Positions 16,329 through 60,300 of a stretch of DNA of 64,000 nucleotides are shown here, piece by piece. The notes beneath the pieces are model-generated. The model saw nothing but the letters and a program-made list of their open reading frames with translations. It made no database searches and was not told the origin of the DNA. This DNA comes from an uncultured Alphaproteobacteria bacterium. GTDB lineage: Bacteria > Pseudomonadota > Alphaproteobacteria > CAAHEQ01 > UBA3637. Each line of letters opens with the position of its first letter. The stretch's first letter is position 1. A program made the position numbers and the translations under genes. The stretch covers positions 33,646 to 97,645 of the forward strand of contig CALXZG010000002.1 of assembly GCA_944393195.1 (NCBI GenBank). The letters are read 5' to 3'.

Positions 16329-16351
16329 CTTTTTTGGGATTGGGGGAACGG

Positions 16352-16804: not shown

Positions 16805-16906
16805 ATTGAGAATCCCCTGATACCTGTTTAGGGGCGTTAGGGGATTTCTTTTTTTTGAAATAATCGATAAAAAAATACTTGCAAATATATCTCGACACGG
16901 ATACAT

Positions 16907-16922
16907 TGTTTCACATGAAACA
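16907..16922. promoter_or_regulatory. parS-like site (one mismatch to TGTTTCACGTGAAACA)
   Basis: tgtttcacAtgaaaca, immediately upstream of rsmG-parA-parB. Confidence 0.7.
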
Positions 16923-16934
16923 CATAAAAAAAGG

Positions 16935-17546
16935 ATGAATATGTTTCACGTGGAACAATTAAATACGCTTTTGCAACAAGTACGGCCACAGTTAGTGGCT
17001 TATTTAGCGCTTTTGGAACGGTGGCAAAATGCCGTGAATTTGGTGTCAAAATCAACATTACCGGATGCTTGGCAACGGCATATCGTGGATTCGGCACAGT
17101 TGTTTCCATTATTACCGGCCGGAACGAAAACGCTCGTGGATATGGGAAGCGGGGCGGGTTTTCCGGGATTGGTGTTGGCTGTTTTGACGCAAGCCCAAAT
17201 GAACCCGCCACCGACTGTCACCTTGATTGAAAGTGATACTAAAAAATGTTTGTTTTTAAAGGAAGTTGCTCGGCAAATTCATGTTCCGGTTACGATTTTA
17301 AATCAACGCTTGGAAACGTGCGAACAGCGCCCGTCGGATGTGATTACGGCTCGGGCATTGGCGTCATTGGATCAATTGTTGGGGTGGGCTAAACCGTTTT
17401 TGACGCCGATATCAACCTGCCTGTTTCTGAAAGGGGAGGAAGTTGATACGGAAATAGCGTCGATTGAACATAAAGCGGTGATTGAAAAAATACACAGTTT
17501 AACGCATCCGCGCGGATGTATTTTAAAAATAACGGAGGTCAAATAA
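16935..17546 (+). CDS. rsmG: 16S rRNA m7G527 methyltransferase
   Basis: 203 aa. Contains the SAM motif DMGSGAGFPGLVLA. Gene order is gidB-parA-parB. Confidence 0.9.
   Translation: MNMFHVEQLNTLLQQVRPQLVAYLALLERWQNAVNLVSKSTLPDAWQRHIVDSAQLFPLLPAGTKTLVDMGSGAGFPGLVLAVLTQAQMNPPPTVTLIESDTKKCLFLKEVARQIHVPVTILNQRLETCEQRPSDVITARALASLDQLLGWAKPFLTPISTCLFLKGEEVDTEIASIEHKAVIEKIHSLTHPRGCILKITEVK
16942..16957. promoter_or_regulatory. parS-like site (one mismatch)
   Basis: tgtttcacgtgGaaca, inside the first codons of rsmG. Confidence 0.65.
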
Positions 17547-18313
17547 TGTGTCCATTGGTGTTTTCTGTTTCAAATCAAAAAGGCGGGGTCGGTAAAACCA
17601 CAACGACGGTAAATGTGGCAACGGCTTTGGCCGCATTGGAAAAGAAAGTATTGATTATCGATTTAGATCCGCAAGGCAACGCAACCGTCAGTTTGGGGCG
17701 TCAACGTGTCAGTGGCGGGCCGAATTCATATACGGTTCTGACGGGACGACATACGGTGGCTGACAGTATTCAACAAACGGATATTCCGTACTTGTCTCTG
17801 TTGCCGGCCGGTCCGGAATTGTTGGGATTGGATATGGAGTTGGCCGATGTGGAAAAACCGCAGTTCTTTTTGAAAAAAGCAATTGAATCCATTGATTTTG
17901 ATTATGTATTTATTGATTGTCCGCCGGCTGTCGGACTGTTAACCATGAATGCTTTGGTGGCTTCCAATCGTGTGATTATTCCGGTTCAATGTGAATATTT
18001 GGCCTTGGAAGGTGTGGCGGATCTGATGAAAACGATTGAGCGGGTTAAGCGCAATTTTAATCCGGATTTGATGATTCAAGGGATTGTGATGACGATGTTT
18101 GATGGGCGTTCCAACCTGTCTAAATCGGTTGTCAATGATGTGCGTTCTTTCTTTAAAGAATTGGTTTTTGAAACCGTTATTCCCCGAAATGTACGTATTC
18201 CCGAGGCTCCATCCCATGGTAAACCGGTTATGTTGTATGATTTCAGAAGCGTCGGTGCGCAAAACTATATTCGGTTGGCCGGTGAAATTTTAAAACGAGA
18301 AAAGGAGAAATAA
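17546..18313 (+). CDS. parA: chromosome partitioning ATPase ParA
   Basis: Start at 17546 after GGAGG. Contains the deviant Walker A KGGVGKTT. Confidence 0.93.
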   Translation: MCPLVFSVSNQKGGVGKTTTTVNVATALAALEKKVLIIDLDPQGNATVSLGRQRVSGGPNSYTVLTGRHTVADSIQQTDIPYLSLLPAGPELLGLDMELADVEKPQFFLKKAIESIDFDYVFIDCPPAVGLLTMNALVASNRVIIPVQCEYLALEGVADLMKTIERVKRNFNPDLMIQGIVMTMFDGRSNLSKSVVNDVRSFFKELVFETVIPRNVRIPEAPSHGKPVMLYDFRSVGAQNYIRLAGEILKREKEK

Positions 18314-18314
18314 T

Positions 18315-19223
18315 ATGGAAAAAAACTTGGGATTGGGAAAAGGCCTTAGTGCGTTGATGGGCGATGATAATCTGTATGCCCCACAGGCTTTACGAAAAGC
18401 AACGACTTCTGATATTATTTTAGTCAATGTGACGGATTTGGTGCCAAGTCCCTTTCAACCGCGTCGTGTTTTTACGGAAGCGGCTTTGAGCGATTTAGTT
18501 TCTTCCATTCGGGAAAAAGGGGTTTTACAGCCTTTATTGGTGCGTCGTAATCCCCGTCAACCGATGGGATATGAAATTATTGCCGGGGAACGGCGTTTCC
18601 GGGCTTCTAAAATGGCCGGCTTAAACCAAGTCCCTGTTATCGTTAAGGATTTTGATGATAAAGCCGCTTTGGAGGTCGCTTTAATTGAAAACTTGCAACG
18701 GGAAGATTTAAACCCGTTGGAAGAAGCCGAAGCCTATCATCGGTTGTTGCAAGAATTTCAATATACACAGGAAGAATTATCTCAGGTTGTCGGTAAAAGT
18801 CGCAGCCATGTGGCCAATATGATGCGTTTGCTTGATTTACCGAATGAAATCAAAGTGTTGGTTGAAAATAAAGAGCTGACAATCGGGCATGCACGGGCTT
18901 TGTTAAATGCCCAAAATCCACTGGAATTAGCTCAGGAAGTCATTCGAAAAGGGTTAAGTGTCCGCCAAACCGAAAAGTTGGCGACAACGGCCGGCGGTGT
19001 GAAAACGCATCGTAAAACCATGCAGCATATTCAAAAGAAAATGACGCAACAAAAAGATGAAGATATTTTGGCGTTGGAAAAAGAAATGTCGCATTTATTA
19101 AAAACACCGGTGACGATTAATTGGACGGGGCAGGGCGGTGAAGTGGTTGTTGCCTATGATACGTTGGATAAATTAGATATTATTTTACAACAACTGATGA
19201 AGATGGATCCGATAGGATATTAG
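18315..19223 (+). CDS. parB: chromosome partitioning protein ParB
   Basis: 302 aa. Contains the ParB box GERRFRA and an HTH region. Confidence 0.93.
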   Translation: MEKNLGLGKGLSALMGDDNLYAPQALRKATTSDIILVNVTDLVPSPFQPRRVFTEAALSDLVSSIREKGVLQPLLVRRNPRQPMGYEIIAGERRFRASKMAGLNQVPVIVKDFDDKAALEVALIENLQREDLNPLEEAEAYHRLLQEFQYTQEELSQVVGKSRSHVANMMRLLDLPNEIKVLVENKELTIGHARALLNAQNPLELAQEVIRKGLSVRQTEKLATTAGGVKTHRKTMQHIQKKMTQQKDEDILALEKEMSHLLKTPVTINWTGQGGEVVVAYDTLDKLDIILQQLMKMDPIGY

Positions 19224-19233
19224 GGGTTACCCG

Positions 19234-20574
19234 ATGGAAAATCAGGCAGAAATTGTTTTATCCGTCACCGAAATTTCGTTAGCTTTAAAAGGGTGTGTGG
19301 AACAGGTTTTTGGCCATGTGAAAGTCCGTGGGGAAATTTCCGGCCTGAAAAAAGCGGCTTCCGGCCATACCTATTTTTCTTTAAAAGATAACGATTCCGT
19401 TTTGTCGGCTGTGTGTTGGCGGGGACGAAACGAAGCAACTCGCGCCGCGTTACAAGAGGGTTTGGAAGTCGTTTGTACGGGGAAACTATCCACTTATCCG
19501 GGGCGTTCCAATTATCAAATGATTGTTGAAACGGTTGAGCCGGCGGGGGAGGGTGCCCTTTTAAAATTACTGAAAGAACGAAAAGAAAAGCTTGAAAAGG
19601 AAGGCCTTTTTGATCCGTCACGTAAGAAAAAAATCCCCTACTTACCGGATGTAATCGGTGTTGTGACAAGCCCGTCCGGCGCCGTTATTCGGGATATTAT
19701 GCACCGCTTGCGGGATCGTTTTCCGCGCCCGGTTTTGTTATGGCCTGTTTTGGTTCAAGGTGAGGGGGCTGCCGAACAAATTGCAAAAGCTATTCAAGGA
19801 TTTAATACTATTCCCCCGACTGGTTTGATGACACCGAACGGCCTTGTTCCCCGACCGGATGTTTTGATTGTGGCGCGTGGTGGCGGTAGTTTGGAAGACT
19901 TGTGGTGCTTTAACGAAGAAATCGTTGTTCGGGCGGCGGCGGCTTCCGATATTCCGCTGATTTCGGCTGTCGGTCATGAAACGGATACAACATTAATTGA
20001 TTATGTTGCGGATTTACGGGCGCCGACACCAACCGGTGCGGCCGAAAAAGCTGTTCCGGTGCGCAGTGAATTACAAATTCAATTACAAAATGCTCAAAAT
20101 CGGTTGATGGATGCGACATATCGTCTGTGTGAAGAACAAGCTGTTCGATTGGATGCTTTAAAACGATCTCTTCCGAATTTATCTGAAATAATTGAAGGAT
20201 TTATTCAAAAATTAGATGACAGATCCGAACGGTTGGATCAGGCTTTTGATGTTTGTATTCGCTTGATTCAAAATAAATTAGAAACAGCGTCTAAGTTATT
20301 GAAATCATATTCATATCACTCTGTTTTGGAACGTGGATTTACCCTTGTTTCAGGGCCGTCAGGTCAAATTATCGGGCAATCGCGCGTTGCAGGGGCGGAA
20401 AAATGGTTGCAAATTGCTTTTGCGGATGGTAAAATAACGGTTGTTCCCAGGGGGCGTGTGGAACAAAAAGATTGTTTAAGTTCAATGGGTTTTGATGGGA
20501 AAAACGTTGTTAAAAAGAAAAAAGAAATCCCAAATACACAACCGGATTTATTTTTCAATTCAGACAAGGAGTAA
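19234..20574 (+). CDS. xseA: exodeoxyribonuclease VII large subunit
   Basis: 446 aa. N-terminal OB fold (VRGEISG...SGHTYFSLKD) and the catalytic core ARGGGS..DLW.FN. Confidence 0.9.
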   Translation: MENQAEIVLSVTEISLALKGCVEQVFGHVKVRGEISGLKKAASGHTYFSLKDNDSVLSAVCWRGRNEATRAALQEGLEVVCTGKLSTYPGRSNYQMIVETVEPAGEGALLKLLKERKEKLEKEGLFDPSRKKKIPYLPDVIGVVTSPSGAVIRDIMHRLRDRFPRPVLLWPVLVQGEGAAEQIAKAIQGFNTIPPTGLMTPNGLVPRPDVLIVARGGGSLEDLWCFNEEIVVRAAAASDIPLISAVGHETDTTLIDYVADLRAPTPTGAAEKAVPVRSELQIQLQNAQNRLMDATYRLCEEQAVRLDALKRSLPNLSEIIEGFIQKLDDRSERLDQAFDVCIRLIQNKLETASKLLKSYSYHSVLERGFTLVSGPSGQIIGQSRVAGAEKWLQIAFADGKITVVPRGRVEQKDCLSSMGFDGKNVVKKKKEIPNTQPDLFFNSDKE

Positions 20575-20656
20575 TTACATTGAAATTACAAAATACATTA
20601 AATAATTACAAAGTAATTACATTTTTAACACAGAATTGTAATTACAAAGTTATTAC
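20572..20656 (+). promoter_or_regulatory. second array of three TAATTAC-N4-(T/A)A(A/T)TTAC boxes
   Basis: Pairs at 20572/20583, 20603/20614 and 20639/20650, with the same 7+4+7 architecture as 8120-8197. The array lies directly upstream of, or overlapping, the annotated start of the M23 peptidase gene. Confidence 0.5.
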
Positions 20657-21509
20657 AGCGCGATGTTTTATATATACATTGTGCTTACTTTTTTTATTGT
20701 TCATACATTTACCTGTGCGGGCCTTTGAATTATTGACACCGGTTCGGGAAGGACAGCTTGTCTATGGGCGGTTGGCACCAGATGAGCGGTTGTACGTGGA
20801 CGGTCAATTGTTGCACAATGGTGAACAATCGGACAGGTATCAGATTCCCGTGAATGAGGATGGTTTATTTGTTTTAGGTATTCCGCAAGATGCAGCACAG
20901 CATTTGACAGTTTTTTTGGAAAACAAACAAGGTATTGTCCCAAAACACATAGCGGTTGATCGGGTTCATTGGAAAGAAGATATTGTCAATGGGTTACCGG
21001 CAGGCAAAGTATCCCCGGATACGAAAGCACAAAAGCGTATCGTGGATGAAGCGTTGTTATTACAGAAAGCGCGTCAATCATCCGACGGGGCCTTTTTTCC
21101 GGAAACGTGGATTCTTCCTGTTGCACAATATACCAGAATATCAAGTCCTTTTGGATCTCGGCGGGTATTAAACGGGACTAAAAAAGCGGGACATAGCGGT
21201 ACGGATTTTGCAGCACCGACGGGAACGGCGGTGGTTGCTCCGGCCGACGGTCGGGTAAAGGTGGTTCATCCGGATATGTTTTATACCGGTAAGACAATTT
21301 TAATTGACCACGGACAAGGTGTTTTTTCCAGCTATTCTCATTTGAGTGAGATTAACGTTACTGAAAATCAAGTTGTTAAGCAGGGGGATGTTATTGGTGC
21401 CGTGGGGATGACGGGGCGATCGACCGGACCGCATTTACATTTTGCCGTGACGTGGTTTGGGGTGCGGGTTAATCCGGAATTTTTGTTTGAAGATGCATTG
21501 AAAAAGTAA
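20580..21509 (+). CDS. M23-family metallopeptidase (LytM/EnvC-like), secreted
   Basis: Contains HSGTDFAAP, SYSHLS and GPHLHF motifs. The true start is probably internal (for example TTG at 20679, giving the signal peptide CLLFLLFIHLPVRA), because the first about 30 codons are the AATTAC array. Confidence 0.85.
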   Translation: MKLQNTLNNYKVITFLTQNCNYKVITARCFIYTLCLLFLLFIHLPVRAFELLTPVREGQLVYGRLAPDERLYVDGQLLHNGEQSDRYQIPVNEDGLFVLGIPQDAAQHLTVFLENKQGIVPKHIAVDRVHWKEDIVNGLPAGKVSPDTKAQKRIVDEALLLQKARQSSDGAFFPETWILPVAQYTRISSPFGSRRVLNGTKKAGHSGTDFAAPTGTAVVAPADGRVKVVHPDMFYTGKTILIDHGQGVFSSYSHLSEINVTENQVVKQGDVIGAVGMTGRSTGPHLHFAVTWFGVRVNPEFLFEDALKK

Positions 21510-21528
21510 TCGTCAGACTTTTATATCA

Positions 21529-21551
21529 CCCGCCCGATCGGGCGGGTTTTA
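21529..21551 (+). terminator. rho-independent terminator of the M23 peptidase gene
   Basis: Palindrome CCCGCCCGATCGGGCGGG followed by TTTT. Confidence 0.65.
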
Positions 21552-21731
21552 TTGTTATTGATACGATCGTGAAAAAAACAGTATTTATTTTTGTTTTATT
21601 TTCAAATAGATATTTTTTTTGTGTCACAAGACAGAAAAAAGAATTCCCAGTATAAAACGTATATAAGTGTTACATATTAAAATGTAACAGTAATTTTGGA
21701 AAGATGTTGTTTTTCAATATGTTATTTAACG

Positions 21732-21899
21732 AGTGTAACAATTTAATGTTCCTTTTTTTGTTATACTTTTTGCACCTTACACGACTTTTAACTAAATGAA
21801 CAGGAACCCTTTATAATATAAATATTTTCTTCTTGCTTTACCTTTCTTTTTGTGATACATAATTTTATAACATTTTAAGGAACATTAAATTGTTACACT
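21732..21899. repeat. perfect 23-bp inverted repeats (21732-21754 and 21877-21899) flanking a 122-bp AT-rich segment; part of the gene-less copy of the pilin-family 5' module
   Basis: agtgtaacaatttaatgttcctt and aaggaacattaaattgttacact are exact reverse complements. The enclosed segment is homologous to 51436-51533, which is upstream of gene 51585. Confidence 0.85.
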
Positions 21900-22050
21900 T
21901 CATTTGACATCTGTTTGATTAATAATCTATATGTGAAGTGCCCCAAAATCGGAAAAAAGTAAAATAGGGACAGATTCGCGGATTAATGCCGTGATACCGT
22001 TTTTATTGTATGGCGATATGTAAAAAAATCCCCGCGCCGGCGGGGATAAT
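21900..22050 (-). promoter_or_regulatory. conserved 5' module of the pilin-like family (orphan copy, minus orientation)
   Basis: The reverse complement aligns with 58183-58312 and with the reverse complement of 42392-42505 (tttttacatatcgcc ... atcaaacagatgtcaaatgaa). It is preceded by the hairpin terminator of ORF 22085-22480. Confidence 0.7.
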
Positions 22051-22084
22051 GTAAAAGAGAAAAGATAACGGGGATGTAAAAGGG

Positions 22085-22480
22085 TTATTCGCTTTTTTCG
22101 CGTTGTATTTCCCGGTTTAATTTTTCCCGATAATAATGTCGATATAAAACATGCCCGGCGATCGCCTCCCGAACATTAGATACTGTTCCGACCAAAGCAG
22201 CCAGACCGAATAACCCGCTAACCGCAATCAACGCCGTTGCCGTATCCGAATCGATTTCTTTTTGGCGGTGTTTCGCGGCCGCATTGGTGGCAACCATGAC
22301 AGACGCCGCCAAAATCCCCGAAAACACAAAAGCCGCTACGCCGGGGACAAGAGAATATGTCCGATAAAACTTTGTCCAATAGGCGATTGATGTATCACTC
22401 TTCCGCGGAATACGGGGCAAAGTTTCTTGTTCTTTATCGTTTAATATCAAAGATGTAATCAGGTTTTTGGATGAACTCAT
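22085..22480 (-). CDS. hypothetical two-helix membrane protein
   Basis: 131-aa ORF with two hydrophobic segments. A terminator hairpin (TCCCCGCCGGCGCGGGGA plus a T-run) lies downstream. Confidence 0.5.
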   Translation of the reverse strand: MSSSKNLITSLILNDKEQETLPRIPRKSDTSIAYWTKFYRTYSLVPGVAAFVFSGILAASVMVATNAAAKHRQKEIDSDTATALIAVSGLFGLAALVGTVSNVREAIAGHVLYRHYYREKLNREIQREKSE

Positions 22481-22634
22481 ATCATATCCTTTGGTTGATT
22501 TGTGACATCAGTATATGCTTTTATTTTTCTTTTGTCAATAAATTTCGTAAAATGTGCATCGGGGTGCAGAAAAACCTTGCCAAGGGAGATGTTTTAGGAT
22601 AGAATGCATACAATTTAACAGGAAAGCAGGCAAG

Positions 22635-25600
22635 ATGACGGAACCCGAGTTTATTCATTTACGTGTCCATACGGAGCATTCTTTATTAGAAGGGGCTATT
22701 AAAACGGCCAAGTTAGTAGCTTGGGCGGCGGAACAACAAATGCCGGCGATCGGTATTGCCGACAGCGGGAATATTTTCGGGGCTATGTTGTTGGCCAAAG
22801 AGGCGTCGCATGCAGGGGTACAACCGATTTTGGGGTGTCAGTTGTTAATTCGGTCACCGAACCGGGAATCTCAGGCTTTTTCGGTTGAAAAACCAACGTA
22901 TGACAAAGTTGTCTTAATTGTGCAAAATGAACAGGGGTATCAAAATTTACTGCTCCATTTTTCGGAATATTATATGGGTGCGGACAAACAGGATACACCT
23001 CATTTAACTTTTGATGAATTGTTGACGAAAACGGAAGGGCTTCTTATCCTGACCGGTGGGATTGAAGGCATTCTGGGGCGACCGGTGTTAAGCGGTCATG
23101 CGGATTTTGCGGCGGAATTGTTGCAACGGTTACAGGCGGCTTATCCGGGACGGGTATATATGGAACTGCAACGGCATGGATTGGCGGCGGAAGCGCAGGC
23201 TGAGCCGGCTTTTTTAGAGATGGCGTATCGGTTGAATGTGCCTTTGGTCGCGACGAATGAGGCTTTTTTCAAGACGCCGGATATGTATGAGGCGCATGAT
23301 GCCATGTTATGCATTGCAGAAAAGACGTTTGTCACGGAACAAAACCGACGGCGGGTAACACCGGAACATTATTTAAAAACGGCGGCGGAGATGAAGGCTT
23401 TATTTGCCGATCTGCCGGAGGCTTTACAAAATACGGTTCAGATTGCAAAACGGTGTTATTTCATGGCGGTGAAGAAAAAGCCGGCGTTCCCGAACTATGA
23501 TTGTCACGGCAAGACGGAAGATGAAGTTTTGCGGGAAATGGCCGAACGGGGCTTTGAAATGCGGATGGCCGGTCGGTCGGAGGAGGATCGACACAAATAT
23601 CGGGAACGCATGGAGTATGAACTTGGCATTATCAAGCAGATGGGCTTCCCGGGGTACTTTTTAATCGTGGCGGATTTTATTCAATGGTCAAAGGCGCATG
23701 GGGTACCGGTGGGGCCCGGCCGTGGATCGGGGGCCGGATCGGTTGTCGCGTGGTGTTTAACGATTACGGATATTGATCCGTTGCGGTTTAATTTGTTGTT
23801 TGAACGGTTTTTAAATCCGGAACGGGTATCTATGCCGGACTTTGACGTTGATTTTTGTCAGGAAAACCGCCAAAAGACGATTGAATATGTTCAAAATCAT
23901 TACGGATTTGACCATGTGGCGCAAATTATTACGTTTGGTAAGTTGCAGGCCAAAGCGGTCATTCGGGATGTCGGGCGGGTCTTACAGATTCCGTATCCGG
24001 TTGTGGATCAGTTATCAAAGTTGGTACCGAACACGTTGGGAATCACCCTTAAAGAAGCATTAGAGCAAGAGCCGGAGTTTGAAAAGGAAGCGGCATCGGA
24101 CGAATCGATTAAAGTCCTATTGGAAATTGCGTTAAAGTTAGAGGGGCTCTATCGCAATTCATCGACACATGCGGCGGGCGTTGTGATCGGGAACAAGCCT
24201 TTGGATCAAATCGTACCGATTTACAAAGATCCGTCGTCGGACATGCCTGTCACGCAATACAACATGAAATTTGTTGAGGATGCGAGTCTGATCAAGTTTG
24301 ACTTTTTGGGATTAAAAACACTGACGACGATTGCAAAGACGGTTGAACTCATTCAAAAGCGGGGAATTACGGTCGATGCGGGCAATCTGCCTTTGGATGA
24401 TGAGGAAACTTTTGCGCTGTTAAAATCGGCAAATACGACGGGTGTGTTTCAATTGGAATCGACGGGGATGAAAAAGATTCTGCATGACATGCAGCCGGAT
24501 AAGATTGAAGATATTGTGGCGTTGGTTTCGTTGTATCGACCGGGGCCGATGGACAGTATTCCAAGCTATATTGCACGCAAGAAGGGGCTTGAAAAGCCGG
24601 ACTATATGCATCCGAGTTTGGAACCGATTTTAAAAGAAACTTACGGGATCATGATTTACCAAGAGCAGGTGATGCAGATTTCTCAGGTCATGGCGGGATA
24701 TACGCTGGGCGGTGCGGATTTGCTGCGGCGGGCGATGGGTAAAAAAATCAAGGAAGAAATGGTTCGGCAGCGGGGGATTTTTATCGACGGGGCCATTAAA
24801 AAGGGTATTGACAAGGCGACCGCCGAGCTTGTGTTTGATAAGATGGCGAAATTTGCCGAATACGGGTTTAACAAATCGCACGCGGCGGCGTATGCGTACG
24901 TGGCGTATCAAACGGCTTATTTAAAGGCACATTATCCGGTTGAATTTATGGCAGCAACGATGACGTTGGATAAAATCAATACGGACAAGCTGGCTTTTTT
25001 CCGGAATGATTTACAAAAAATGAAAATTGCGGTGTTACCGCCGGATGTCAATAAGTCCGAAGTCAACTTCACGGTTGAAAACGGTGCGGTACGGTATGCT
25101 TTGTCGGCGATTAAAAATGTCGGGGAAGCCGGGATGCAGGCAATTGTGGCGGAACGGAACAAAAACGGTCCGTTTAAATCGATTGAAGATTTTGCGCGTC
25201 GGGTGGATATATCGGCTTTGAATAAACGATACTTGGAAAACATGGCCAAAGCGGGGGCTTTTGAATGTTTGGATAAGAATCGGGCTAAAATTCATGACAA
25301 TGTGGAAAAAATCATGGCTTTTGCGGCACAGGCGACAGAGGCGCGGACAAGTGCGCAAATCGGGTTGTTCGGGGCGGATCCGGCTGTCACACGGTTAAAA
25401 TTGGATGAGGTGCCGGATTGGCCGCATGTCGAAAAGTTGGAACATGAAGCAACCGCTTTGGGATTTTATTTGTCGGCGCATCCGTTGGATACGTATGATG
25501 CGGTTTTTGACCGGTTGCGGGTTGTTTCTTCCGGTGATGTAGCGGGAATGGTTAAGACGGCCGGTGCGGTACGTGTTCAGATGGCGGGTATTGTATCGGG

Positions 25601-26054
25601 TGTGCGGGAACGTATCAGTCAAAAGGGAAACAAGTTTGCTTTTGTATCGGCAAGTGATAAAGCCGGCGGATTTGAAATGATGTGTTTTGCGGATACCTTG
25701 GCGGTTGTTCGGGATAAATTAAAATCGGGCCAACCGTTATTGTTGAGTGTGACGGCGGACAAACGACCGGACGATGATGAAAATATTCGGATGACGTTAC
25801 AAAGTGCCGAGTATTTATCGGATGTGATGGCAAAAACGGCGTCGACTTTATTGATTTCCGTCAATCAACCGGCGGCGGTAACGGCGGTGCAACAATTATT
25901 GGAGCGGGATCCGGCCGGAAAAAGTCGCGTTTTCATCTTGGTACGCGCCAAGGGGCATGAAGTGGAAATCTCTCTGCCAAAACGGTACAGTTTGAACAGC
26001 GAAACGATGAATGATTTGCAACGTCTGAGCGGTGTTGAATATCGGCAGGTTTAA
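22635..26054 (+). CDS. dnaE: DNA polymerase III alpha subunit
   Basis: Start at the ATG at 22635. Contains a PHP domain (FIHLRVHTEHSLLEGA), the palm motif PDFDVDF and an OB fold at the C-terminus. Confidence 0.97.
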   Translation: MTEPEFIHLRVHTEHSLLEGAIKTAKLVAWAAEQQMPAIGIADSGNIFGAMLLAKEASHAGVQPILGCQLLIRSPNRESQAFSVEKPTYDKVVLIVQNEQGYQNLLLHFSEYYMGADKQDTPHLTFDELLTKTEGLLILTGGIEGILGRPVLSGHADFAAELLQRLQAAYPGRVYMELQRHGLAAEAQAEPAFLEMAYRLNVPLVATNEAFFKTPDMYEAHDAMLCIAEKTFVTEQNRRRVTPEHYLKTAAEMKALFADLPEALQNTVQIAKRCYFMAVKKKPAFPNYDCHGKTEDEVLREMAERGFEMRMAGRSEEDRHKYRERMEYELGIIKQMGFPGYFLIVADFIQWSKAHGVPVGPGRGSGAGSVVAWCLTITDIDPLRFNLLFERFLNPERVSMPDFDVDFCQENRQKTIEYVQNHYGFDHVAQIITFGKLQAKAVIRDVGRVLQIPYPVVDQLSKLVPNTLGITLKEALEQEPEFEKEAASDESIKVLLEIALKLEGLYRNSSTHAAGVVIGNKPLDQIVPIYKDPSSDMPVTQYNMKFVEDASLIKFDFLGLKTLTTIAKTVELIQKRGITVDAGNLPLDDEETFALLKSANTTGVFQLESTGMKKILHDMQPDKIEDIVALVSLYRPGPMDSIPSYIARKKGLEKPDYMHPSLEPILKETYGIMIYQEQVMQISQVMAGYTLGGADLLRRAMGKKIKEEMVRQRGIFIDGAIKKGIDKATAELVFDKMAKFAEYGFNKSHAAAYAYVAYQTAYLKAHYPVEFMAATMTLDKINTDKLAFFRNDLQKMKIAVLPPDVNKSEVNFTVENGAVRYALSAIKNVGEAGMQAIVAERNKNGPFKSIEDFARRVDISALNKRYLENMAKAGAFECLDKNRAKIHDNVEKIMAFAAQATEARTSAQIGLFGADPAVTRLKLDEVPDWPHVEKLEHEATALGFYLSAHPLDTYDAVFDRLRVVSSGDVAGMVKTAGAVRVQMAGIVSGVRERISQKGNKFAFVSASDKAGGFEMMCFADTLAVVRDKLKSGQPLLLSVTADKRPDDDENIRMTLQSAEYLSDVMAKTASTLLISVNQPAAVTAVQQLLERDPAGKSRVFILVRAKGHEVEISLPKRYSLNSETMNDLQRLSGVEYRQV

Positions 26055-41420: not shown

Positions 41421-41490
41421 AAAGTCGCCTTTTATAAATCTACGTCATCCCCGCACAAGCGGGGATTTTTTAATATTAAAAACCGAAAAC

Positions 41491-42357
41491 TCATCGACAG
41501 AGGGCAAATAGTAGTAGTCGACGTCCCAAACGGTTGAACCCGATCGCACCTGAACTACTACCCTGTATATAATACGAACTACATCCACTCAACTTCGTAC
41601 TTGTCCAATAAGGCTTACCTGTCGTGTGTGCCCATCCCGAACAGCTACCATAATAACTGTTTGCCTTAGCCGCCGCCAATTCTTCCGCCGTACACCCGTC
41701 CGTTAGCGGTGCTAAACTCTTCCCAAGTGCTTGACAGAAGTTCTCTGCTGCATGATAGGACATAGATCCTGTTGATGTTGTGCATGTTGTTCCGTTAATC
41801 TCTACTGTTGCAGTACTCATATTTGTGCACGTCCCAATCACCACATCACAACTATAAGTATTTTTACAATATTGATTATCCCCCGTACAATCATCATTTG
41901 TCATACATTTATTTGTTCCTAATGCGGATACACAGGTACCTATACCGGAACTATATTGACACTTCTCGTCTTTTCCACAACATTTGTCACCGCATGTAAC
42001 GCCATCCGGACAATAGACGCAATAACGAGGATCGTATCCCCCGATTTGAGCACCTGTACATCTCTCACATGTATCCTCTATATCTCCCGTATGCGTTTCG
42101 ACTGGATTTCCTTCTGTTGGACAAGCAATACAGGACGAAGACGCATATTTATTATAAAACTCACCTTCTTCACATTCCGGATAAAAATCTGTCACACATT
42201 CCCCTGTTGATAATCGATATTCATTCTCCCCACACTCTTGTTCTTCCGACTCACCATCTCCATCCCCTGAAATTTGGGAGCCGACCAACGCATTATGGAA
42301 AGCAAATAATATCTCGTTATCCTCTTGCTTTGTTTTCCCTTTTATGATACACAACAT
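41491..42357 (-). pseudogene. 5'-truncated member of the pilin-like/Cys-rich/lectin-like family (candidate silent cassette)
   Basis: The ORF begins inside the family 5' module. It joins the family alignment at EILFAFHNAL (EMLFAFANTL in the intact genes). It therefore lacks the RBS, the prepilin leader and the whole N-domain. The Cys-rich and YHAAENFC...ALCR parts are intact. Confidence 0.7.
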
Positions 42358-42596
42358 CTATAACAAAAAAATGTACATTAAATTGTTACACTTCATTTGA
42401 CATCTGTTTGATTAATAATCTATATGTGAACTTCCCCAAAATCAAAAAAAGTAAAATAGGGATAGATTCGCGGACTAATGCCGTGAATAATGTTTTTGTG
42501 TGGTGATATGTAAAAACGCCCTGTTATCACAAAAACTTTCCTGCCCGACAAAAAAGCGTCCCGAAACGGAACGCTTTCTTAACATATCGGCTACGT
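42358..42596 (-). promoter_or_regulatory. family 5' module including the recA terminator; inverted copy of 58005-58346
   Basis: The reverse complement aligns with the region downstream of rpsT apart from a roughly 110-nt repeat insertion there. It contains the palindromic site gtgtaacaatttaatgtacatttttttgttatag (42358-42391). Confidence 0.75.
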
Positions 42597-43631
42597 CTAT
42601 TCGCCATCCGCCGGTACGCCCTCATCATTATCCAACATTTGTTGTGATAAATCCTTGGCATCGTTGCGAATAATTGCCTCAACTTCATCGGCCATAGCCG
42701 GATGCGCCTTTAAATAAGCCCGCGCCGTTTCTCGCCCTTGCCCGATTCGCTCCCCACGGCAAGAAAACCAAGCACCGGCCTTTTCCACAACGCCTGCTTT
42801 AATCCCTAAATCCAACAATTCACCGGTTTTGGAAATTCCTTCACCGTACAGGATATCAAAGTCAACCGTTTTAAACGGCGGTGCAACCTTATTCTTAACA
42901 ATTTTAACCCGCGTCTGATTCCCGATCGTATTGTCCCGATCCTTAATAGCCCCGATCCGCCGAATATCCAATCGAACGGAAGCATAGAATTTTAACGCAT
43001 TACCGCCCGTCGTTGTTTCCGGACTACCGAACATAACCCCTAATTTCATCCGAATCTGATTGATGAAAATGACCAAGGTATTCGCACGCGCCACCGACGC
43101 CGTAATTTTACGCAAAGCCTGACTCATCAGCCGCGCCTGTAACCCCATGTGAGAATCCCCCATTTCGCCTTCCAATTCGGCTTTCGGAACCAACGCCGCC
43201 ACCGAATCCACAACCAAAACATCCAACGTTCCCGACCGTACTAACGTATCCGCGATTTCCAACGCCTGTTCCCCCGTATCCGGCTGAGAAATCAATAAAT
43301 CATCAATCTTAACCCCCAACTTTTTGGCATACGACGGATCCATGGCATGTTCAGCATCGATATAAGCACATACCCCGCCTTTTTTCTGAGCCTCTGCCAC
43401 CACATGCAAAGCCAACGTTGTTTTTCCCGAGCTTTCCGGCCCATAGATTTCCACAATCCGTCCGCGTGGCAGACCACCGATCCCCAAAGCCATATCCAAC
43501 CCCAAAGATCCCGTTGAAATAGCCGGAATTTCCATCGCGTTTTCCTGTTGCCCCAAGCGCATAATGGATCCCTTGCCAAACGCCCGTTCAATCTGTGCCA
43601 AAGCGGCTTCAAGTGCTTTTTCTTTTTCCAT
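42597..43631 (-). CDS. recA: recombinase RecA
   Basis: 344 aa. Contains Walker [10 protein letters not shown] and canonical RecA sequence throughout. Confidence 0.98.
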
Positions 43632-45877: not shown

Positions 45878-46280
45878 CGTCACCCCTTATTATTAGTCCA
45901 TCATCCCCTATAATTCTACGTCATCCCCGACCCCATAAGTAATCCGTCACCCCCGACTTGATCGGGGGTCTCATGACCATCTTACCCCCTTTTAAATTCC
46001 AACATCCGCTTGCCGGCGGAGACTCCCGCTGCCTTGGCGCGCGGTGTTTCATTGCCTTACGCGAAAAAACAATTCACCGGATTGTTTTTTCTTGCGCGGT
46101 ATCCTTGCGTAAGCGAGGATCTCATGACACGCACTCCATCCCTTTATAAAAAACCCGCACGGCCACCCCCCGCGGGGAAAGGCGGGGCGGCCATAATGAC
46201 CTCTTTGCCCGTGTCGGGGCTCTTAAATGCCCCGACACAAATAATTAAATAGGTAAAGGAGATATTAAAAAATCAGAACC
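45878..46280 (-). repeat. 3' flank plus repeat array of the family, inverted copy of 59742-60255
   Basis: The reverse complement is colinear with the region after gene 58482-59741: ttttttaatatctcctttacctatttaattatttgtgtcggggc, then the roughly 130-nt unit gatcctcgcttacgcaagg...ggcaagcggatgttggaat, then catgagacccccgatcaagtcggggg and GATGACGG modules. Confidence 0.8.
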
Positions 46281-46550
46281 TTAGCGACACAGGGCGTTGA
46301 CGGCGCCGCCGCTCCAACCGACAGACCCGACCGCGCCTGACCAGGGATATACATAATACGAAGCACATCCACTCAATTTTGTTGCTGTCCAATAATGGTT
46401 AGAAAGACTACTATTCAACCATCCACTACAACTACCATAATAATTATTTGCCTTAACTGTTGCTAATTCTTCCGCCGTACACCCGTCTGTCACCGATACC
46501 AAACTCTTCCCGAGGGCTTGACAGAAATTAACTGCTGCATGATACGGCAT
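46281..46550 (-). pseudogene. isolated C-terminal (lectin-like) fragment of the family
   Basis: Encodes PYHAAVNFCQALGKSLVSVTDGCTAEELATVKANNYYGSCSGW...GAVGSVGWSGGAVNALCR. Family homology stops abruptly at about 46550. Confidence 0.8.
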
Positions 46551-47090
46551 ATAATTCGTTGGTTCCGGGGGAGAGGGGAGAAGGTAATGACGAATCCGAA
46601 GTTGAAGTGTGTGAAGAGGGTGAATATCGGTTATCGACAGGAGAGTGTGTGATAGATTCACATCCGGAATGTGGTGATGGAGAGTTTTATAATAAATGGA
46701 TATCTTCTTCCTGTATTGCGTGTCCAACGGAAGGAAATCCGGTCGAAATTAGTGTATCGGATGTGGAAGATAGTTGTGAAAAATGTGCGGGGGCGCAGTA
46801 TGGTGGGTATTATCCTAATTATTGCGTCTATTGTCCATCCGGTGTTGTGTGTGGTGATCAATGTTGTGGGGAAGGACAAATGTGTCAATATAGTTCCGGT
46901 ACCTATACCTGTGTATCGGAATTAGGTGACGGCGAATGTTGGACAAATGATGATTGTGCCGGAGCCAATCAATATTGTCAAAATGGTGGAAGTTGTGAAG
47001 TGACGATTGGGACGTGTGAAACGATCAGTAGTACAGCTGTGATAATTAACGGAAAAGAGTATACGGCTTCAACGGATTATGTATCTTACC
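46551..47090 (+). pseudogene. isolated middle (Cys-rich) fragment of the family on the opposite strand
   Basis: Encodes NSLVPGERGEGNDESEVEVCEEGEYRLSTGECV...EYTASTDYVSYQAA. It abuts the minus-strand C-terminal fragment head-to-head at 46550/46551. It ends at the YHAA-equivalent point, where it joins a repeat unit through the shared string ggcagcgg. Confidence 0.8.
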
Positions 47091-47232
47091 AGGCAGCGGG
47101 AGTCGCCGCCGGCAAGCGGATGTTGGAATTGGAATGGAGTAAGATGGTCATGAGACCCCCGATCAAGTCGGGGATGACGGATTACTTATGGGGTCGGGGA
47201 TGACGGACTAATGATAAGGGAATGGCGGAAAA
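47091..47232 (+). repeat. distal repeat block (ggcagcgggagtcgccgccggcaagcggatgttggaattgga...catgagacccccgatcaagtcggggatgacgg...)
   Basis: Same orientation as 60117-60230 and inverted relative to 45905-46025. Confidence 0.8.
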
Positions 47233-51269: not shown

Positions 51270-51380
51270 TTTTAACAGCCTCCATCGAGGCTGTTTTTTT
51301 ATGGAAAATCCGGTAAATTGAGACTATTTTTGAAAAAAATGCCTTTTCGGAGAAAGGGATGTTTTTGATATGGTTGATAA

Positions 51381-51584
51381 ATCAAACAGATGTCAAATGA
51401 AGTGTAACAATTTAATGTTCATTAAAATGTTATAAAATTATGTATCACAAAAGTGAAAACAAAGCAAGAAGAAAATATTTATATTATAAAGAGTTCCTGT
51501 TCATTTGGTTAAAAGTCATGTAAGGTGCAAAAAGTATAACAAAAAAGGGAACATTTTTTTGTTATAGTTGAAAAGGAGCGATAA
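51381..51584 (+). promoter_or_regulatory. 5' control region of pilin-like gene A
   Basis: Conserved block atcaaacagatgtcaaatgaagtgtaacaatttaatgt (possible ATGTCA-17-TAATGT promoter). Palindromic site 1 lies at 51402-51435 and palindromic site 2 at 51534-51567, the latter directly before the AAAGGAG RBS. Confidence 0.5.
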
Positions 51585-52994
51585 ATGACTGAAACAAAAA
51601 ACAAAAACGGGAAAAGTGGTGTGTATCAAAATAGTGATTTAGGGGCATCGTGTGTGTGTCATAAGACCCCCGATCAGGTCGGGGATGACGGTTTAACAGT
51701 AGGGAGTGCGTGTTCAAAGATCCCCGCTTTCGCAGGGATGACGGGTAGTAACCGCGGGGAGCGGGGACGGAGCATGGTTGAGATGTTGGGCGTTCTGGCG
51801 GTCATGGGCGTATTGTCGATCGGCGGTGTGGCCGGGTATCGGTATGCGATCGATAAAATGAATGCGAATGACATTATCAATGAAGTGAAAAAAAGAGCCG
51901 TGACGGCGAGTCAACAACGCATCTTGGGACACGATATTAATTTATCGGAATACGGGGATAATGGTCGGATTAAGGGAATTCATGCCGTTACAGCGACAAA
52001 CGATTATGCGGGGGATAAAGGGTTCTTTGCGTTGACGGTATCAAATATACCGCAACGGGTATGCGATGACATTCTGAAACAGGATTGGAATATGCCGGTG
52101 GAAACAGCGGTCGGAGGTGTTGTGGTTGATGATGATACAGCCTGCGCCGCCGGGGATAATGAAATGTTGTTTGCGTTTGCGAATACGTTGGACAGCTCTC
52201 TGGTTCCGGGAGAAGGGGGAGAAGATGACGGGGATGAAGAGGAAGTACAGGAATGCGCCGAGGGTGAATATCGGTTATCGACAGGGGAATGTGTGACGGA
52301 TTCACATCCGGAATGTGGTGATGGGGAGTTTTATAATGGACTCACGGATTCTTGTACAGCCTGTCCGACGGAAGGAAATCCTGTCCATATTTATTCGTCG
52401 GATATGGAAGATACGTGTGAAAAATGTACGGGGTCGCGGTATGGTGGACCTTATCCCAGCTATTGTGTCTATTGTCCGGATGGTGTTACCTGTGGTGATC
52501 AATGTTGTGGGGAAGACGAAATGTGTCAACGCGATACAAGTTCTTGGCCATATACATTTACCTGTGTCTCTACATTAGGGGAAGGAGAATGTTTGACGAA
52601 TGATGATTGTGTAGATAATCAATATTGTCGGAATAGTTATGGTTGTGAAGTGACGGTTGGGACATGTACGGATATTAGTAGTACGCCGGTAGAGATTAAC
52701 GGAACAGAATACACAGCGTCAACGGGTTCTATGCTGTATCATGCGGCGGAGAATTTCTGTGATGCGCTTGGGAAGCGTTTAGCACCGGTGACAGACGGAT
52801 GTACGGCGGAAGAATTGGCAGCGGTTAAAGCAAATGGTTCAGGTAGTTGTTCGGGATGGGCACAGACGACGGGTGAGCGTTATTGGACAGCAACCAAATT
52901 AAGCGGATGCGCTTCGTATTATGTATGGAGTAGTAGTTCAGGCGCGGTCGGGTCTGTCGGTTGGAACGGCGGCAACTACGCCCTGTGTCGCTAA
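51585..52994 (+). CDS. modular type-IV-pilin-like protein with Cys-rich repeats and lectin-like C-terminal module (copy A; leader expanded by a repeat insertion)
   Basis: 469 aa. The class III signal-like core G-RSMVEMLGVLAVMGVLSIGGVAGY lies at aa 61-85. It is followed by a conserved head domain, an acidic linker, a region with about 25 Cys, and a C-terminal YHAAENFC...W...ALCR. Confidence 0.8.
   Translation: MTETKNKNGKSGVYQNSDLGASCVCHKTPDQVGDDGLTVGSACSKIPAFAGMTGSNRGERGRSMVEMLGVLAVMGVLSIGGVAGYRYAIDKMNANDIINEVKKRAVTASQQRILGHDINLSEYGDNGRIKGIHAVTATNDYAGDKGFFALTVSNIPQRVCDDILKQDWNMPVETAVGGVVVDDDTACAAGDNEMLFAFANTLDSSLVPGEGGEDDGDEEEVQECAEGEYRLSTGECVTDSHPECGDGEFYNGLTDSCTACPTEGNPVHIYSSDMEDTCEKCTGSRYGGPYPSYCVYCPDGVTCGDQCCGEDEMCQRDTSSWPYTFTCVSTLGEGECLTNDDCVDNQYCRNSYGCEVTVGTCTDISSTPVEINGTEYTASTGSMLYHAAENFCDALGKRLAPVTDGCTAEELAAVKANGSGSCSGWAQTTGERYWTATKLSGCASYYVWSSSSGAVGSVGWNGGNYALCR
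51612..51770 (+). repeat. 159-nt in-frame insertion of palindromic mini-repeats inside the leader of gene A
   Basis: Absent from copy B (MTEIKMENG-LSMVE). It contains agacccccgatcaggtcggggatgacgg and agatccccgctttcgcagggatgacgg, both found in intergenic copies elsewhere in the window. Confidence 0.8.
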
Positions 52995-53170: not shown

Positions 53171-53300
53171 AGGGAGTGAGATGGTCATAAGATTCCCGCT
53201 TTCGCGGGAATGACGGACTAATAATAAGGGATGACGGGATTATAATGGGATGCATTAAAAGCCCCCCCCCGAAACAAGTCCGGGGGTGACGAGGTTATCA
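53171..53300. repeat. cluster of GATGACGG-type palindromic mini-repeats
   Basis: agattcccgctttcgcgggaatgacggactaataataagggatgacgggattataatggg ... ccccccccgaaacaagtccgggggtgacg. Confidence 0.75.
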
Positions 53301-57989: not shown

Positions 57990-58010
57990 GCTTGACGATT
58001 TTTTTAGAAA

Positions 58011-58038
58011 AGCGTTCCGTTTCGGGACGCTTTTTTTT
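58011..58038 (+). terminator. rpsT terminator, sequence-identical to the recA terminator (42550-42577, minus strand)
   Basis: AGCGTTCCG-TTT-CGGGACGCT followed by T8. This is the first element of the duplicated family 5' module. Confidence 0.8.
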
Positions 58039-58481
58039 GTTGGGCAGGAAAGTTTTTGTGATAACAGGGCGTTGTTATTTTTCCGTCATCCCTGCGCAGG
58101 CGGGGATTTTTGGACGCACAACCACACCTTTAAAAGACCCCCGATCAGGTCGGGGGTGACAGGGTACTTGTGGATCGGGGATTTTTTTACATATCGCCAT
58201 ACAATAGAAACGGTATTCACGGCATTAGTCCGTGAATCTGTCCCTATTTTACTTTTTTCTGATTTTGGGTCACTCCCAATCTAAATGATTTATCAAACAG
58301 ATGTCAAATGAAGTGTAACAATTTAATGTACCTTAAAATGTTACAGTTTTTATAACATAATCAGGAATGCGATGCAAGTCCTTTTTTATTAAGAATTAAT
58401 CGGTTATCGATTTGTCATTTTTTGTCCAAACTGTAACACAAAAGGGTACATTTTTGTGTTACAGTTCGAAAGGAGTATTAA
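58039..58481 (+). promoter_or_regulatory. 5' control region of pilin-like gene B
   Basis: Conserved module 58183-58346, with a roughly 110-nt mini-repeat insertion at 58072-58182. Site 1 lies at 58313-58346. Site 2, ctgtaacacaaaagggtacatttttgtgttacag, lies at 58431-58464 (13-bp arms), followed by the AAAGGAG RBS. Confidence 0.5.
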
Positions 58482-59741
58482 ATGACTGAAATCAAAATGG
58501 AAAATGGTCTGAGTATGGTTGAGATGTTGGGTGTTCTGGCGGTGGCGGGTGTCCTGTCGATTGGCGGTGTGGCCGGATATCGGTATGCGATTGATAAAAT
58601 GAATGCGAATGACATTATCAACGAAGTGCGGAAACGGGCCGTGACGGCAAGTCAACAACGCATCTTGGGACACGATATTAATTTATCGGAATACGGGGAT
58701 AATGGCCGGATTAAAGGAATTCATGCCGTTACAGCGACAAACGATTATGCTGGGGATAAAGGGTTCTTTGCGTTAACGGTATCAGCAGTCCCGCAACGGG
58801 TATGTGATGACATCCTGAAACAGGATTGGGCAATGCCGGTAGAAACCGCCGTCGGTGGTGTTGTGGTCGATGATGATACCGCCTGCGCCGAAGGGGATAA
58901 TGAGATGTTGTTTGCGTTTGCGAATACGTTGGATAATTCGTTGGTCCCGGGAGAAGGGGGAGGAGAGAACGGAGATGAATCGGAAGTACAGGAATGCGCC
59001 GAGGGCGAATATTGGTCATCAAGTTTAGAAACATGTGTGACAGACCCGCATACGGAGTGCGCGGATGGGGAGTTTTATAATGGATATACAAACTCCTGTA
59101 CGGCTTGTCCAACAGATGGAAATGCCGTTCCAAATGATTCATTAGATATGGAAGATACGTGTGAAAAATGCGTAGGGTCGCGGTATGGTGGATCTCATCC
59201 CGGCTATTGTGTCTATTGTCCGGATGGCGTTACCTGTGGCGATCAATGTTGTGGCGAAGGACAAATGTGTCAACGTAGTGGTCCTTATCCGTATACATTT
59301 ACCTGTGTCTCTGCATTAGGGACAAATGAATGTATGACGAATGATGATTGTACGGGAGCAAATCAATATTGCCAGAATGATTCTGGTTGTAGTGCGACAA
59401 ATGGGACGTGTCAAACGATCAGTAGTACGACGGTGACGATTAACGAAAAAACATACACAGCATCGACAGATCGTATGTCGTATCATGCGGCAGAGAACTT
59501 CTGTGATGCGCTTGGGAAAAAATTAGCACCGGTGACAGACGGGTGTACATCGGAAGAATTGGCAGCGGTTAAAGCAAACAATTATTATGGCAGTTGCACA
59601 GGATGGGCACACACGACGGGTAGGTATTATTGGACAAGTACGAAGATAAGCGGGTGTCATTCGTATTATGTAAGCAATAGCAGTTCAGGCGCGGTCGGGT
59701 CTGTCCATCCGTTCGTCGGCTACCACGCCCTTTGTCGCTAA
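58482..59741 (+). CDS. modular type-IV-pilin-like protein with Cys-rich repeats and lectin-like C-terminal module (copy B, canonical)
   Basis: 419 aa. The N-terminus MTEIKMENG-LSMVEMLGVLAVAGVLSIGGVAGYRY has Gly at -1, Glu at +5 and a hydrophobic helix. The downstream architecture matches copy A. Confidence 0.85.
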   Translation: MTEIKMENGLSMVEMLGVLAVAGVLSIGGVAGYRYAIDKMNANDIINEVRKRAVTASQQRILGHDINLSEYGDNGRIKGIHAVTATNDYAGDKGFFALTVSAVPQRVCDDILKQDWAMPVETAVGGVVVDDDTACAEGDNEMLFAFANTLDNSLVPGEGGGENGDESEVQECAEGEYWSSSLETCVTDPHTECADGEFYNGYTNSCTACPTDGNAVPNDSLDMEDTCEKCVGSRYGGSHPGYCVYCPDGVTCGDQCCGEGQMCQRSGPYPYTFTCVSALGTNECMTNDDCTGANQYCQNDSGCSATNGTCQTISSTTVTINEKTYTASTDRMSYHAAENFCDALGKKLAPVTDGCTSEELAAVKANNYYGSCTGWAHTTGRYYWTSTKISGCHSYYVSNSSSGAVGSVHPFVGYHALCR

Positions 59742-60300
59742 GGTTCCCGCTTTTTTAATATCTCCTTTACCTATTTAATTATTTGTGTCGGGGCATTTAA
59801 GAGCCCCGACACGGGCAAAGAGGTCATTATGGCCGCCCCCGCTTTCCCCGCGGGGGTGGCCGTGCGCGTTTTTTATAAAGGGATGGAGTGCGTGTCATGA
59901 GATCCTCGGGTCAAGCCCAAGGATGACAGTTTTATAATAAGGGATTGTGTTAAAAGATTCCCGCTTGCGCGGGAATGACGAGATATTTATATGGGATGAC
60001 GTAGGAGGGGAGGAGTGAGGTGGTTGAAAGATCCTCGCTTACGCAAGGATACCGCGCAAGAAAAAACAATCCGGTGAATTGTTTTTTCGCGTAAGGCAAT
60101 GAAACACCTCGCGCCAAGGCAGCGGAAGTCGCCGTCGGCAAGCGGATGTTGGAATTGGAAAGGTGTGTGCGTCATGAGACCCCCGATCAAGTCGGGGATG
60201 ACGGATTACTTATGGGGTCGGGGATGACGGATTACTTATGGGGTCGGGGATGACGGGGTATTTATAGGGGGGGGTGACGGAGGCAGGGAACGAGGTGTGG
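59742..60300 (+). repeat. 3' flank and dense repeat array, including 2.3 tandem copies of a 26-nt unit at 60197-60256
   Basis: Contains the hairpin gtgtcggggc...gccccgacac, the roughly 130-nt unit at 60030-60160, catgagacccccgatcaagtcggggatgacgg, and tandem gatgacggattacttatggggtcggg units. Confidence 0.8.

Follow-up and report, generated by a model that had tools for sequence, protein, structure and literature searches.

The window, a 64,000-nucleotide stretch of DNA from an uncultured Alphaproteobacteria bacterium, carries directly downstream of recA a minus-strand open reading frame that we call cassette C. Two intact paralogs (genes A and B) and two fragments (D1 and D2) of the same family lie further along the window. 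The module upstream of cassette C recurs upstream of A and B, and once more at ~21650-22040 (the solo module). The features are:

21650..22040, minus: solo copy of the upstream module; both palindromes present, 91% identity to that of A
41443..41466, minus: REP-like palindrome (CCCCGCTTGTGCGGGGATGACG), a terminator-like hairpin downstream of cassette C, facing uppS
41477..41686, minus: replaced tract specific to the window strain, ~210 nt, with ~55 substitutions and three indels relative to seven identical alleles
41491..42357, minus: cassette C, a 288-codon ORF for stalk and lectin-like part; N-domain, leader and ribosome-binding site absent
41507..41533, minus: apparent compensated frameshift (+1 then +5 nt) inside the replaced tract
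42321..42323, minus: fusion junction, upstream module (..caaagcaaga) joined to mid-gene sequence (gg/gataacgag)
42358..42596, minus: upstream module retained by cassette C, ~240 nt
42359-42390, minus: first TGTAACA-N-TGTTATA palindrome, kept in cassette C
42549-42575: recA terminator hairpin and T-run, within the cassette C upstream module
42597..43631, minus: recA, directly upstream of cassette C
46284..46553, minus: fragment D1, the last ~90 codons (lectin-like part), open, 5/5 Cys; downstream region 45919-46280
46542..47097, plus: fragment D2, a 5'-truncated stalk part, open, 19/19 Cys
51585..52994, plus: intact gene A, 469 aa; upstream module 51368-51584
58482..59741, plus: intact gene B, 419 aa; upstream module 58009-58481, with a copy of the recA-type terminator
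51401-51440 and 51533-51572 (A), 58312-58351 and 58430-58465 (B), 21732-21771 and 21864-21903 (solo): module palindromes
45945-45968, 47156-47179, 53195-53291, 58138-58161 and 59960-60265: REP-like palindromes other than that at 41443-41466

Anatomy of cassette C and its upstream module

On the minus strand, the shared upstream module ends in ...tgtatcataaaagggaaaacaaagcaagagg (42351-42321), with ...caaagcaagagg as its last letters (42321), and continues directly with (g)ataacgagatattatttgctttccataatgcg. This codes for DNEILFAFHNAL, the counterpart of DNEMLFAFANTL in gene A (51585-52994) and gene B (58482-59741). The DNA after the junction, ataacgagatattatttgctttccataat, is translated as DNEILFAFHN and aligns with DNEMLFAFAN at codon 139 of gene B and codon 191 of gene A; gene A has a REP-like insertion in its leader. 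The joining of a promoter module to mid-gene sequence on the minus strand, as described in the original prediction, was thus confirmed at 42321-42323 and is identical in seven other assemblies. The prediction had placed the join at about 170 codons into the intact genes, which is correct for neither, and one base of its junction sequence had been miscopied (gctttccat, not gcttttcat).

The ORF of cassette C starts with an ATG at 42357, inside the upstream module. Codons 1-12 are read from the module, and family sequence is confined to codons 13-288. The 288-codon frame is open, as predicted, but only 276 of its codons belong to the family. All 24 of the 24 retained positions that are Cys in both A and B are kept, and the window allele has one additional Cys (Y-to-C, codon 192).

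With gene A as the reference, the deletion at cassette C measures about 684 nt (51470-52153), and its junction shows an imperfect microhomology of ~9 nt, GA(A/G)GA(A/T)AA. The second TGTAACA..TGTTACA palindrome, the AAAGGAG ribosome-binding site and the start codon were lost, together with the prepilin leader and the whole N-domain. No Shine-Dalgarno sequence was found at cassette C, which reads gttatagATG where A and B have AAAGGAG-N7-ATG. Upstream of and within the start of its ORF there was no signal sequence, and no hydrophobic or pilin segment.

All four copies of the upstream module have the same core, with exact matches of 39-56 nt within 42375-42430, and the same ATCAAACAGATGTCAAATGAAGTGTAACAATTTAATGT, which overlaps the first palindrome. 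Intact modules contain a pair of TGTAACA-N18-TGTTACA-type palindromes at a spacing of 132 nt (A and solo) or ~118 nt (B), the second of them sitting directly before the ribosome-binding site. The palindrome could be a regulator-binding site or a 5'-UTR hairpin. Scans with the sigma-70 consensus located no promoter conserved across the four upstream modules. A short ORF (MYHK..., 22-27 codons) lies between the two palindromes in module A (51447-51530) and in solo (21792-21860); it is not conserved in module B, and in cassette C the matching frame ends at the junction.

As predicted, cassette C lies immediately downstream of recA (42597-43631), its module (42358-42596) abutting that gene. This adjacency looks incidental, as family copies are scattered, placed singly between housekeeping genes. 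The recA terminator had also been described as part of the repeated module. This holds for gene B, where the terminator and the next ~45 nt recur (42511-42577, matching 58009-58077; the block at 42511-42555 is common to both), but the terminator block is absent from the module of gene A and from the solo module at 21.7 kb. Behind the solo module we found no Shine-Dalgarno sequence, ribosome-binding site, start codon or gene. Some ~200 nt of AT-rich DNA, in which a third small palindrome lies, separate it from an M23 peptidase gene in convergent orientation.

The gene family and sequence exchange within it

The products of the intact genes appear to consist of a C-type-lectin-like tip joined through a Cys-rich stalk to a type IVb-like pilin N-domain, and are predicted to be pilus-displayed adhesins. 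The N-termini of A and B read G|(L/R)SMVEMLGVLAV (prepilin-type G|xSMVE) followed by a hydrophobic helix, and matched Pfam N_methyl and TIGR02532 below threshold (E 0.12-0.36). An AlphaFold2 model of gene B (mean pLDDT 78) has a long N-terminal helix, with a Cys-rich beta stalk between the N-domain and the lectin-like end. In Foldseek searches, the N-domain of this model gave weak matches to the type IVb pilins TcpA and CofA (E ~5e-3). The last ~100 residues matched the C-terminal domain of Bd2740 (a Bdellovibrio tip), CLEC9A, NK receptors and others, again weakly (E 4e-3 to 0.1, probability 0.9-1.0, TM about 0.5 on target). The C-part of the family had no Pfam match and no sequence relative in the PDB.

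The family is hugely expanded, with hundreds of copies across uncultured gut Alphaproteobacteria. A profile scan with the N-domain returned >558 matches in MAGs from the gut of humans, goats, sheep and buffalo that are labelled as uncultured Alphaproteobacteria, all of them distant relatives (<=65% identity), the window's own species being absent from GTDB representatives. A search of genome contigs of GTDB representatives with gene B found nothing, and no description of this gene family was found in the literature. Among the ORFs scanned around family copies there was no recombinase or pilus-assembly gene. These ORFs included no tyrosine recombinase, and no short conserved crossover repeats were found at the junctions, whose sequences differ and have microhomology only. 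No G4 motif was found near any family copy, and an Rfam search returned three tRNAs only.

Full-length members of the family differ strongly between near-identical strains. At a locus between gyrB and a GT52 sialyltransferase-like gene, L093 (5600-7400) and L084 (7300-9060) carry positional orthologs, in which the flanks are 99.5% identical and the N-domains ~97-100%, but the C-domains only ~75%. Gene A of the window and this L093 gene, at different loci and in different strains, have an identical run of 196 nt in common. This run and the divergent C-domains within near-identical flanks establish that the family is a recombining, hypervariable set.

Cassette C has tracts in common with several intact genes. 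The common cassette C allele and gene A of the window have 43 identical nt, a tract that includes a 3-nt deletion (KANGSGSC) otherwise present only in P0018. P0007, which is intact and lies beyond the window on its source contig, has a block of 38 aa that is identical to cassette C and made of otherwise rare residues; P0029 has 23 aa of it. D1 and P0025 similarly have 25 aa in common. These tracts, together with the replaced 3' tract described below, point demonstrably to cassette C taking part in segmental gene conversion with other copies. A reciprocal swap of 3' ends between C and A was considered and rejected, as only 43 nt are in common.

Exchange among full-length genes is much stronger than that of cassette C with intact genes. 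Exact DNA matches of the coding part of cassette C with A, B or D in the window are at most 23 nt long. When coverage by 9-mers was measured against 27 sampled full-length domains, a limited sample of mostly intact genes, it was 57-60% for cassette C and 31% for D2, compared with a median of 82% for full-length genes covering each other. These values suggest that cassette C is weakly integrated into the expressed repertoire.

Strain variation and selection at the truncated copies

The fusion was open between recA and uppS in all eight assemblies examined, of which one (L001) matches the window at 100% along 12.9 kb and may go back to the same data. The other seven (L002, L085-L090) have the exact cassette C protein or a 91-99% variant of it, with the same junction. 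As these come from other samples, the fusion is a real genomic feature, and cassette C is confirmed as a 5'-deleted copy of a variable gene for a predicted pilus adhesin. A scan of JGI metagenomes with a C-specific 26-mer gave no match.

The recA and uppS flanks are ~99% identical between strains, and this divergence of ~1-2% is matched by cassette C outside the replaced tract, where it differs at 9 sites in 223 codons. Four of these SNPs are nonsynonymous and five synonymous, and they are clustered in small groups. The Y-to-C change is carried by two cassette C haplotypes. A 57-nt REP element follows the stop codon in cassette C of other strains and is absent in the window.

The replaced tract at the 3' end is the product of gene conversion, with cassette C certainly the recipient. 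Its dN/dS relative to the common allele is 0.28, so that the donor was a constrained coding sequence; none of the known paralogs of the same genome fits as donor (69-80% identity). The tail of the window allele reads GAIGFNRLGRRLLLFALCR rather than the family's GAVGSxxW..ALCR, and a family-like STVWDVDYYY is found in another frame of this tail.

The locus beside grpE that contains D1 and D2 (window 45900-47210; L088 1-2050, L089, L092 1-1600) is polymorphic between near-identical strains. In some of them, the window strain included, it consists of two partial copies head to head. D2 begins ~10 codons past the breakpoint of cassette C. In L092 it runs in frame into a full C-terminal part, giving a 268-codon copy head to head with D1, while in the window this C-terminal part is deleted at an 11-nt microhomology or direct repeat (AGGCAGCGGAA). 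D1 has been rewritten between strains (79% identity, 21% differences). L088 and L089 have a full-length gene of 445 aa here, with an A-type promoter and in the orientation opposite to gene A. A simple inversion was rejected as the origin of locus D, as inverted copies cannot yield the D1|D2 head-to-head junction; L092 shows two separate partial copies, of which the window lost more by deletion. Contigs of L085, L086 and L088 break inside or at family genes or promoters, which may reflect mixed arrangements in the samples.

Other family genes are broken as well. A 20-nt tandem duplication has caused a frameshift in the L084 gene at the gyrB locus, and a deletion of ~75 nt has done so in L083. 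P0037 and P0039, considered as further fusion cassettes, were rejected, being full-length genes with frameshifts. The partial copies near cassette C look like decaying fragments.

Comparison of cassette C with the intact copies, which the original prediction had proposed as a check, gave a low dN/dS (0.21-0.24, about 0.22), within the range for intact against intact genes (0.20-0.34). However, the corresponding dS is 1.1-1.3 and cassette C is the most divergent copy, so the low ratio mostly reflects its history before truncation. Recent substitutions are no more decisive. At face value, the ratio of 4 nonsynonymous to 5 synonymous changes departs from neutrality with p about 0.05 by our estimate, but the SNPs are clustered, which makes the ratio uninformative as to the relaxed or neutral substitution that had been named as evidence against a donor role. 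In D2, there are 6 nonsynonymous and 0 synonymous SNPs between strains, with a probability of ~0.006 by our binomial estimate if omega is the family-typical 0.25, and its recent polymorphism looks neutral. Support for selective maintenance of cassette C is thus weak.

At family-invariant sites, where intact genes carry a median of 0 private changes, cassette C has 3-4, three of them no further than 13 aa from the junction; beyond these 13 aa, the P0043/P0125 alleles have no such change. The open frame had been thought unexpected for a dead pseudogene. Taking substitutions that create a stop at about 4.5% and indels that shift the frame at about 7% of the substitution rate, we roughly estimate that an open frame of 276 codons is compatible with up to ~3% neutral divergence, and the sampled strains are 1-2% apart. 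The open frame is unsurprising on this estimate.

Origin of cassette C and comparison with known systems

We consider it probable, though by no means certain, that cassette C is a recently 5'-deleted paralog, fixed in this lineage, and a passive member of a recombining family, more a young pseudogene than a donor cassette. It would be the remnant of a divergent member of the multigene adhesin family, in which a single deletion of ~0.5-0.7 kb between short, imperfectly matching sequences fused the proximal module to the first stalk codons. The distal 5' region, with the second palindrome, Shine-Dalgarno sequence, start codon, prepilin leader and whole pilin domain, was removed in this step. The deletion is older than the common ancestor of all sampled strains, and is probably young relative to neutral decay, so that no stop or frameshift has accumulated yet. 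To judge from the parts it lacks, cassette C could not make a pilin-type protein. It is still a substrate for homologous recombination within the family, with the ~210-nt tract received in the window strain and short tracts identical to intact genes. This suggests a peripheral, mostly passive member of the C-domain pool, in which occasional patching may slow decay.

The private changes next to the junction, the Y-to-C change and the compensated frameshift in the tail are signs of incipient decay. Pseudogenisation is common in the family, as seen in the D2 SNPs, the loss of the 3' part of D2, the frameshifts in L084 and L083, and the solo module. Cassette C resembles an ordinary deletion pseudogene of a birth-and-death family in the loss of its start codon, ribosome-binding site and export signal, the microhomology at its junction, the early signs of decay, its frameshifted siblings and the one promoter standing alone. 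It is unlike such a pseudogene in that its frame and all its cysteines are intact and tracts are still exchanged with functional paralogs.

Several observations count against a pseudogene. The dN/dS is as low as that of intact genes, the 24 Cys are kept, and cassette C is open in 8/8 assemblies, as are D1 and D2. Cassette C is static between strains compared with the ~75% identity of C-domains at the gyrB locus, as a silent-archive model would also predict. Finally, derived tracts are common to cassette C and the intact A, P0018, P0007 and P0029, so that C may have donated sequence.

These observations could also mean that cassette C, D1 and D2 form a maintained silent archive of stalk and lectin sequences, as in the pilE/pilS system, from which full-length expressed paralogs are fed by RecA-dependent segmental gene conversion, or by inversion between copies in opposite orientation, so that a surface adhesin would vary. 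Such a maintained donor cassette is a possible but unlikely explanation. It would account for static partial copies alongside varying expressed loci, which are hypervariable between near-identical strains, and for breakpoints that recur at domain borders: C and D2 are both cut off where the N-domain meets the stalk, at positions no more than ~10 codons apart, and D1 and the deletion of D2 in the window both break at a YHAA motif. It fits as well that locus D holds fragments in some strains and, in others, an oppositely oriented full-length gene behind an A-type promoter, as do the conserved open junction, the family-typical dN/dS (0.22 for cassette C) and the tracts in common with intact genes (43 nt with A and P0018; 38 aa with P0007). 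The frame disruptions in orthologs that had been named as counter-evidence were not seen in any of the eight assemblies.

However, the only conversion whose direction can be read has cassette C as the recipient, D1 has also been rewritten between strains, and D2 looks as if it evolves neutrally. The junctions resemble spontaneous microhomology deletions, much of the sequence of C and D2 was unseen in the 27 sampled full-length variants, and the exact identity of the coding part of C to in-window paralogs does not exceed 23 nt. Full-length genes swap far longer tracts (196 nt) and are thus sufficient donors themselves. No G4 motif or recombinase lies nearby, and cassette C retains a promoter module, unlike pilS.

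In Neisseria, pilin antigenic variation draws on partial pilS copies, which lack the N-terminal coding region and feed one expression locus, pilE. As in this system, the proteins here look like type IV pilin relatives of the cell surface, conserved in their N-terminal and variable in their C-terminal part, there are extra partial copies (C, D1 and D2) without the N-terminal coding region, and short tracts flanked by conserved motifs are common to partial and full-length copies, with homology-based exchange and no site-specific recombinase nearby. In contrast to the single expression locus of Neisseria, several full-length, separately promoted genes stand here among housekeeping genes, and they exchange longer tracts mutually than with partial copies. 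Cassette C keeps most of the promoter module, although D1 and D2 do lack it, and there is no G4 element. One-way transfer from a silent copy that itself stays unchanged is not what we observed, as cassette C has been overwritten in one strain and is the recipient in the sole event with a readable direction.

In the R64 shufflon, the C-terminal segments of the type IVb minor pilin PilV are switched by Rci. The family appears to have the same plan of a type IVb-like pilin domain in a constant N-terminal part with alternative C-terminal adhesin segments, and the head-to-head partial ORFs D1 and D2 resemble shufflon segments. Here, however, no tyrosine recombinase was present in the scanned ORFs and no conserved crossover repeats at the junctions, which are those of microhomology deletions, and the copies are dispersed over tens of kb. 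In Anaplasma, the 'functional pseudogenes' of msp2/p44 are donors without both ends that feed a single expression site. That, too, is an alphaproteobacterial multigene family of surface proteins in which truncated open copies exchange segments with expressed genes, but in the present family the truncated copies lack the 5' end only, the expressed paralogs are numerous, and C, D1 and D2 are no more than candidate donors.

The broader proposal is that uncultured human-gut Alphaproteobacteria vary a large family of pilus-displayed lectin proteins by homologous recombination, with 5'-truncated copies (C, D1 and D2), whether they retain a promoter or not, maintained as silent archives for scattered expressed paralogs. 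In our view it is rather unlikely. If it were true, this would be a pilE/pilS-like system with several expression sites in a commensal alphaproteobacterium, and partial copies acting as donors would extend pilS-type variation to such commensals. Cassette C itself is probably an ordinary young pseudogene, yet it flags a gene family for which no description was found, in a little-studied bacterium of the human gut. Its C-domains differ by ~25% inside 99.5%-identical flanks and tracts of 40-200 nt move between loci, a signature pattern of surfaces that contact a host or serve as phage receptors and are under strong pressure to diversify.

The original prediction also raised an alternative leaderless product. 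The module would drive transcription and the ATG at 42357 would start a 288-aa stalk-plus-lectin protein, which we regard as very improbable. The core that is identical in four copies and the first palindrome are intact upstream of the in-frame ATG, which lies a few bases past the palindrome, so that a leaderless or short-leader mRNA is conceivable, and the frame is open in all strains. Against this, there is neither a Shine-Dalgarno sequence nor a signal peptide or pilin segment, a 25-Cys domain of extracellular type would be unlikely to fold in the cytoplasm, the consensus scans located no promoter, and three private substitutions lie just past the junction.

One could also suspect metagenome assembly of having collapsed repeats and so produced the fusion, or the 3' tract specific to the window, as a chimera, but this is scarcely credible. 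The family is indeed repetitive, contigs of L085, L086 and L088 end inside family genes or promoters, and the tract is found only in the window and in L001 (itself possibly the same data). Against this, seven assemblies, from other samples and built by different assemblers, have the identical junction. The tract is embedded in correct recA/uppS flanks, and it corresponds to none of the known paralogs in its genome, to which it is 69-80% identical. An artefact is excluded for the fusion itself and is a remote caveat for the tract.

The surroundings of the family copies have two further features. The region at 15567-26054 contains origin-proximal housekeeping genes (an RNase T-like exonuclease, gidB, parA, parB, xseA, an M23 peptidase and a 1166-aa ORF that is probably dnaE), and related strains have a further family locus beside dnaN-recF-gyrB, which suggests that family copies are concentrated around the origin of replication. 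The neighbourhood of the copies is also dotted with REP-like palindromes (CCCCG-N-CGGGGATGACG and variants). Gene A carries two of them as in-frame insertions in its prepilin leader (about 51640-51760, HKTPDQVGDDG...KIPAFAGMTG), in a manner that may be likened to the Rickettsia palindromic elements, which are in frame as well. Such insertions may be tolerated because a prepilin leader is normally removed by cleavage. P0066, from other strains, has leaders of ~140 aa made of REP-like elements.
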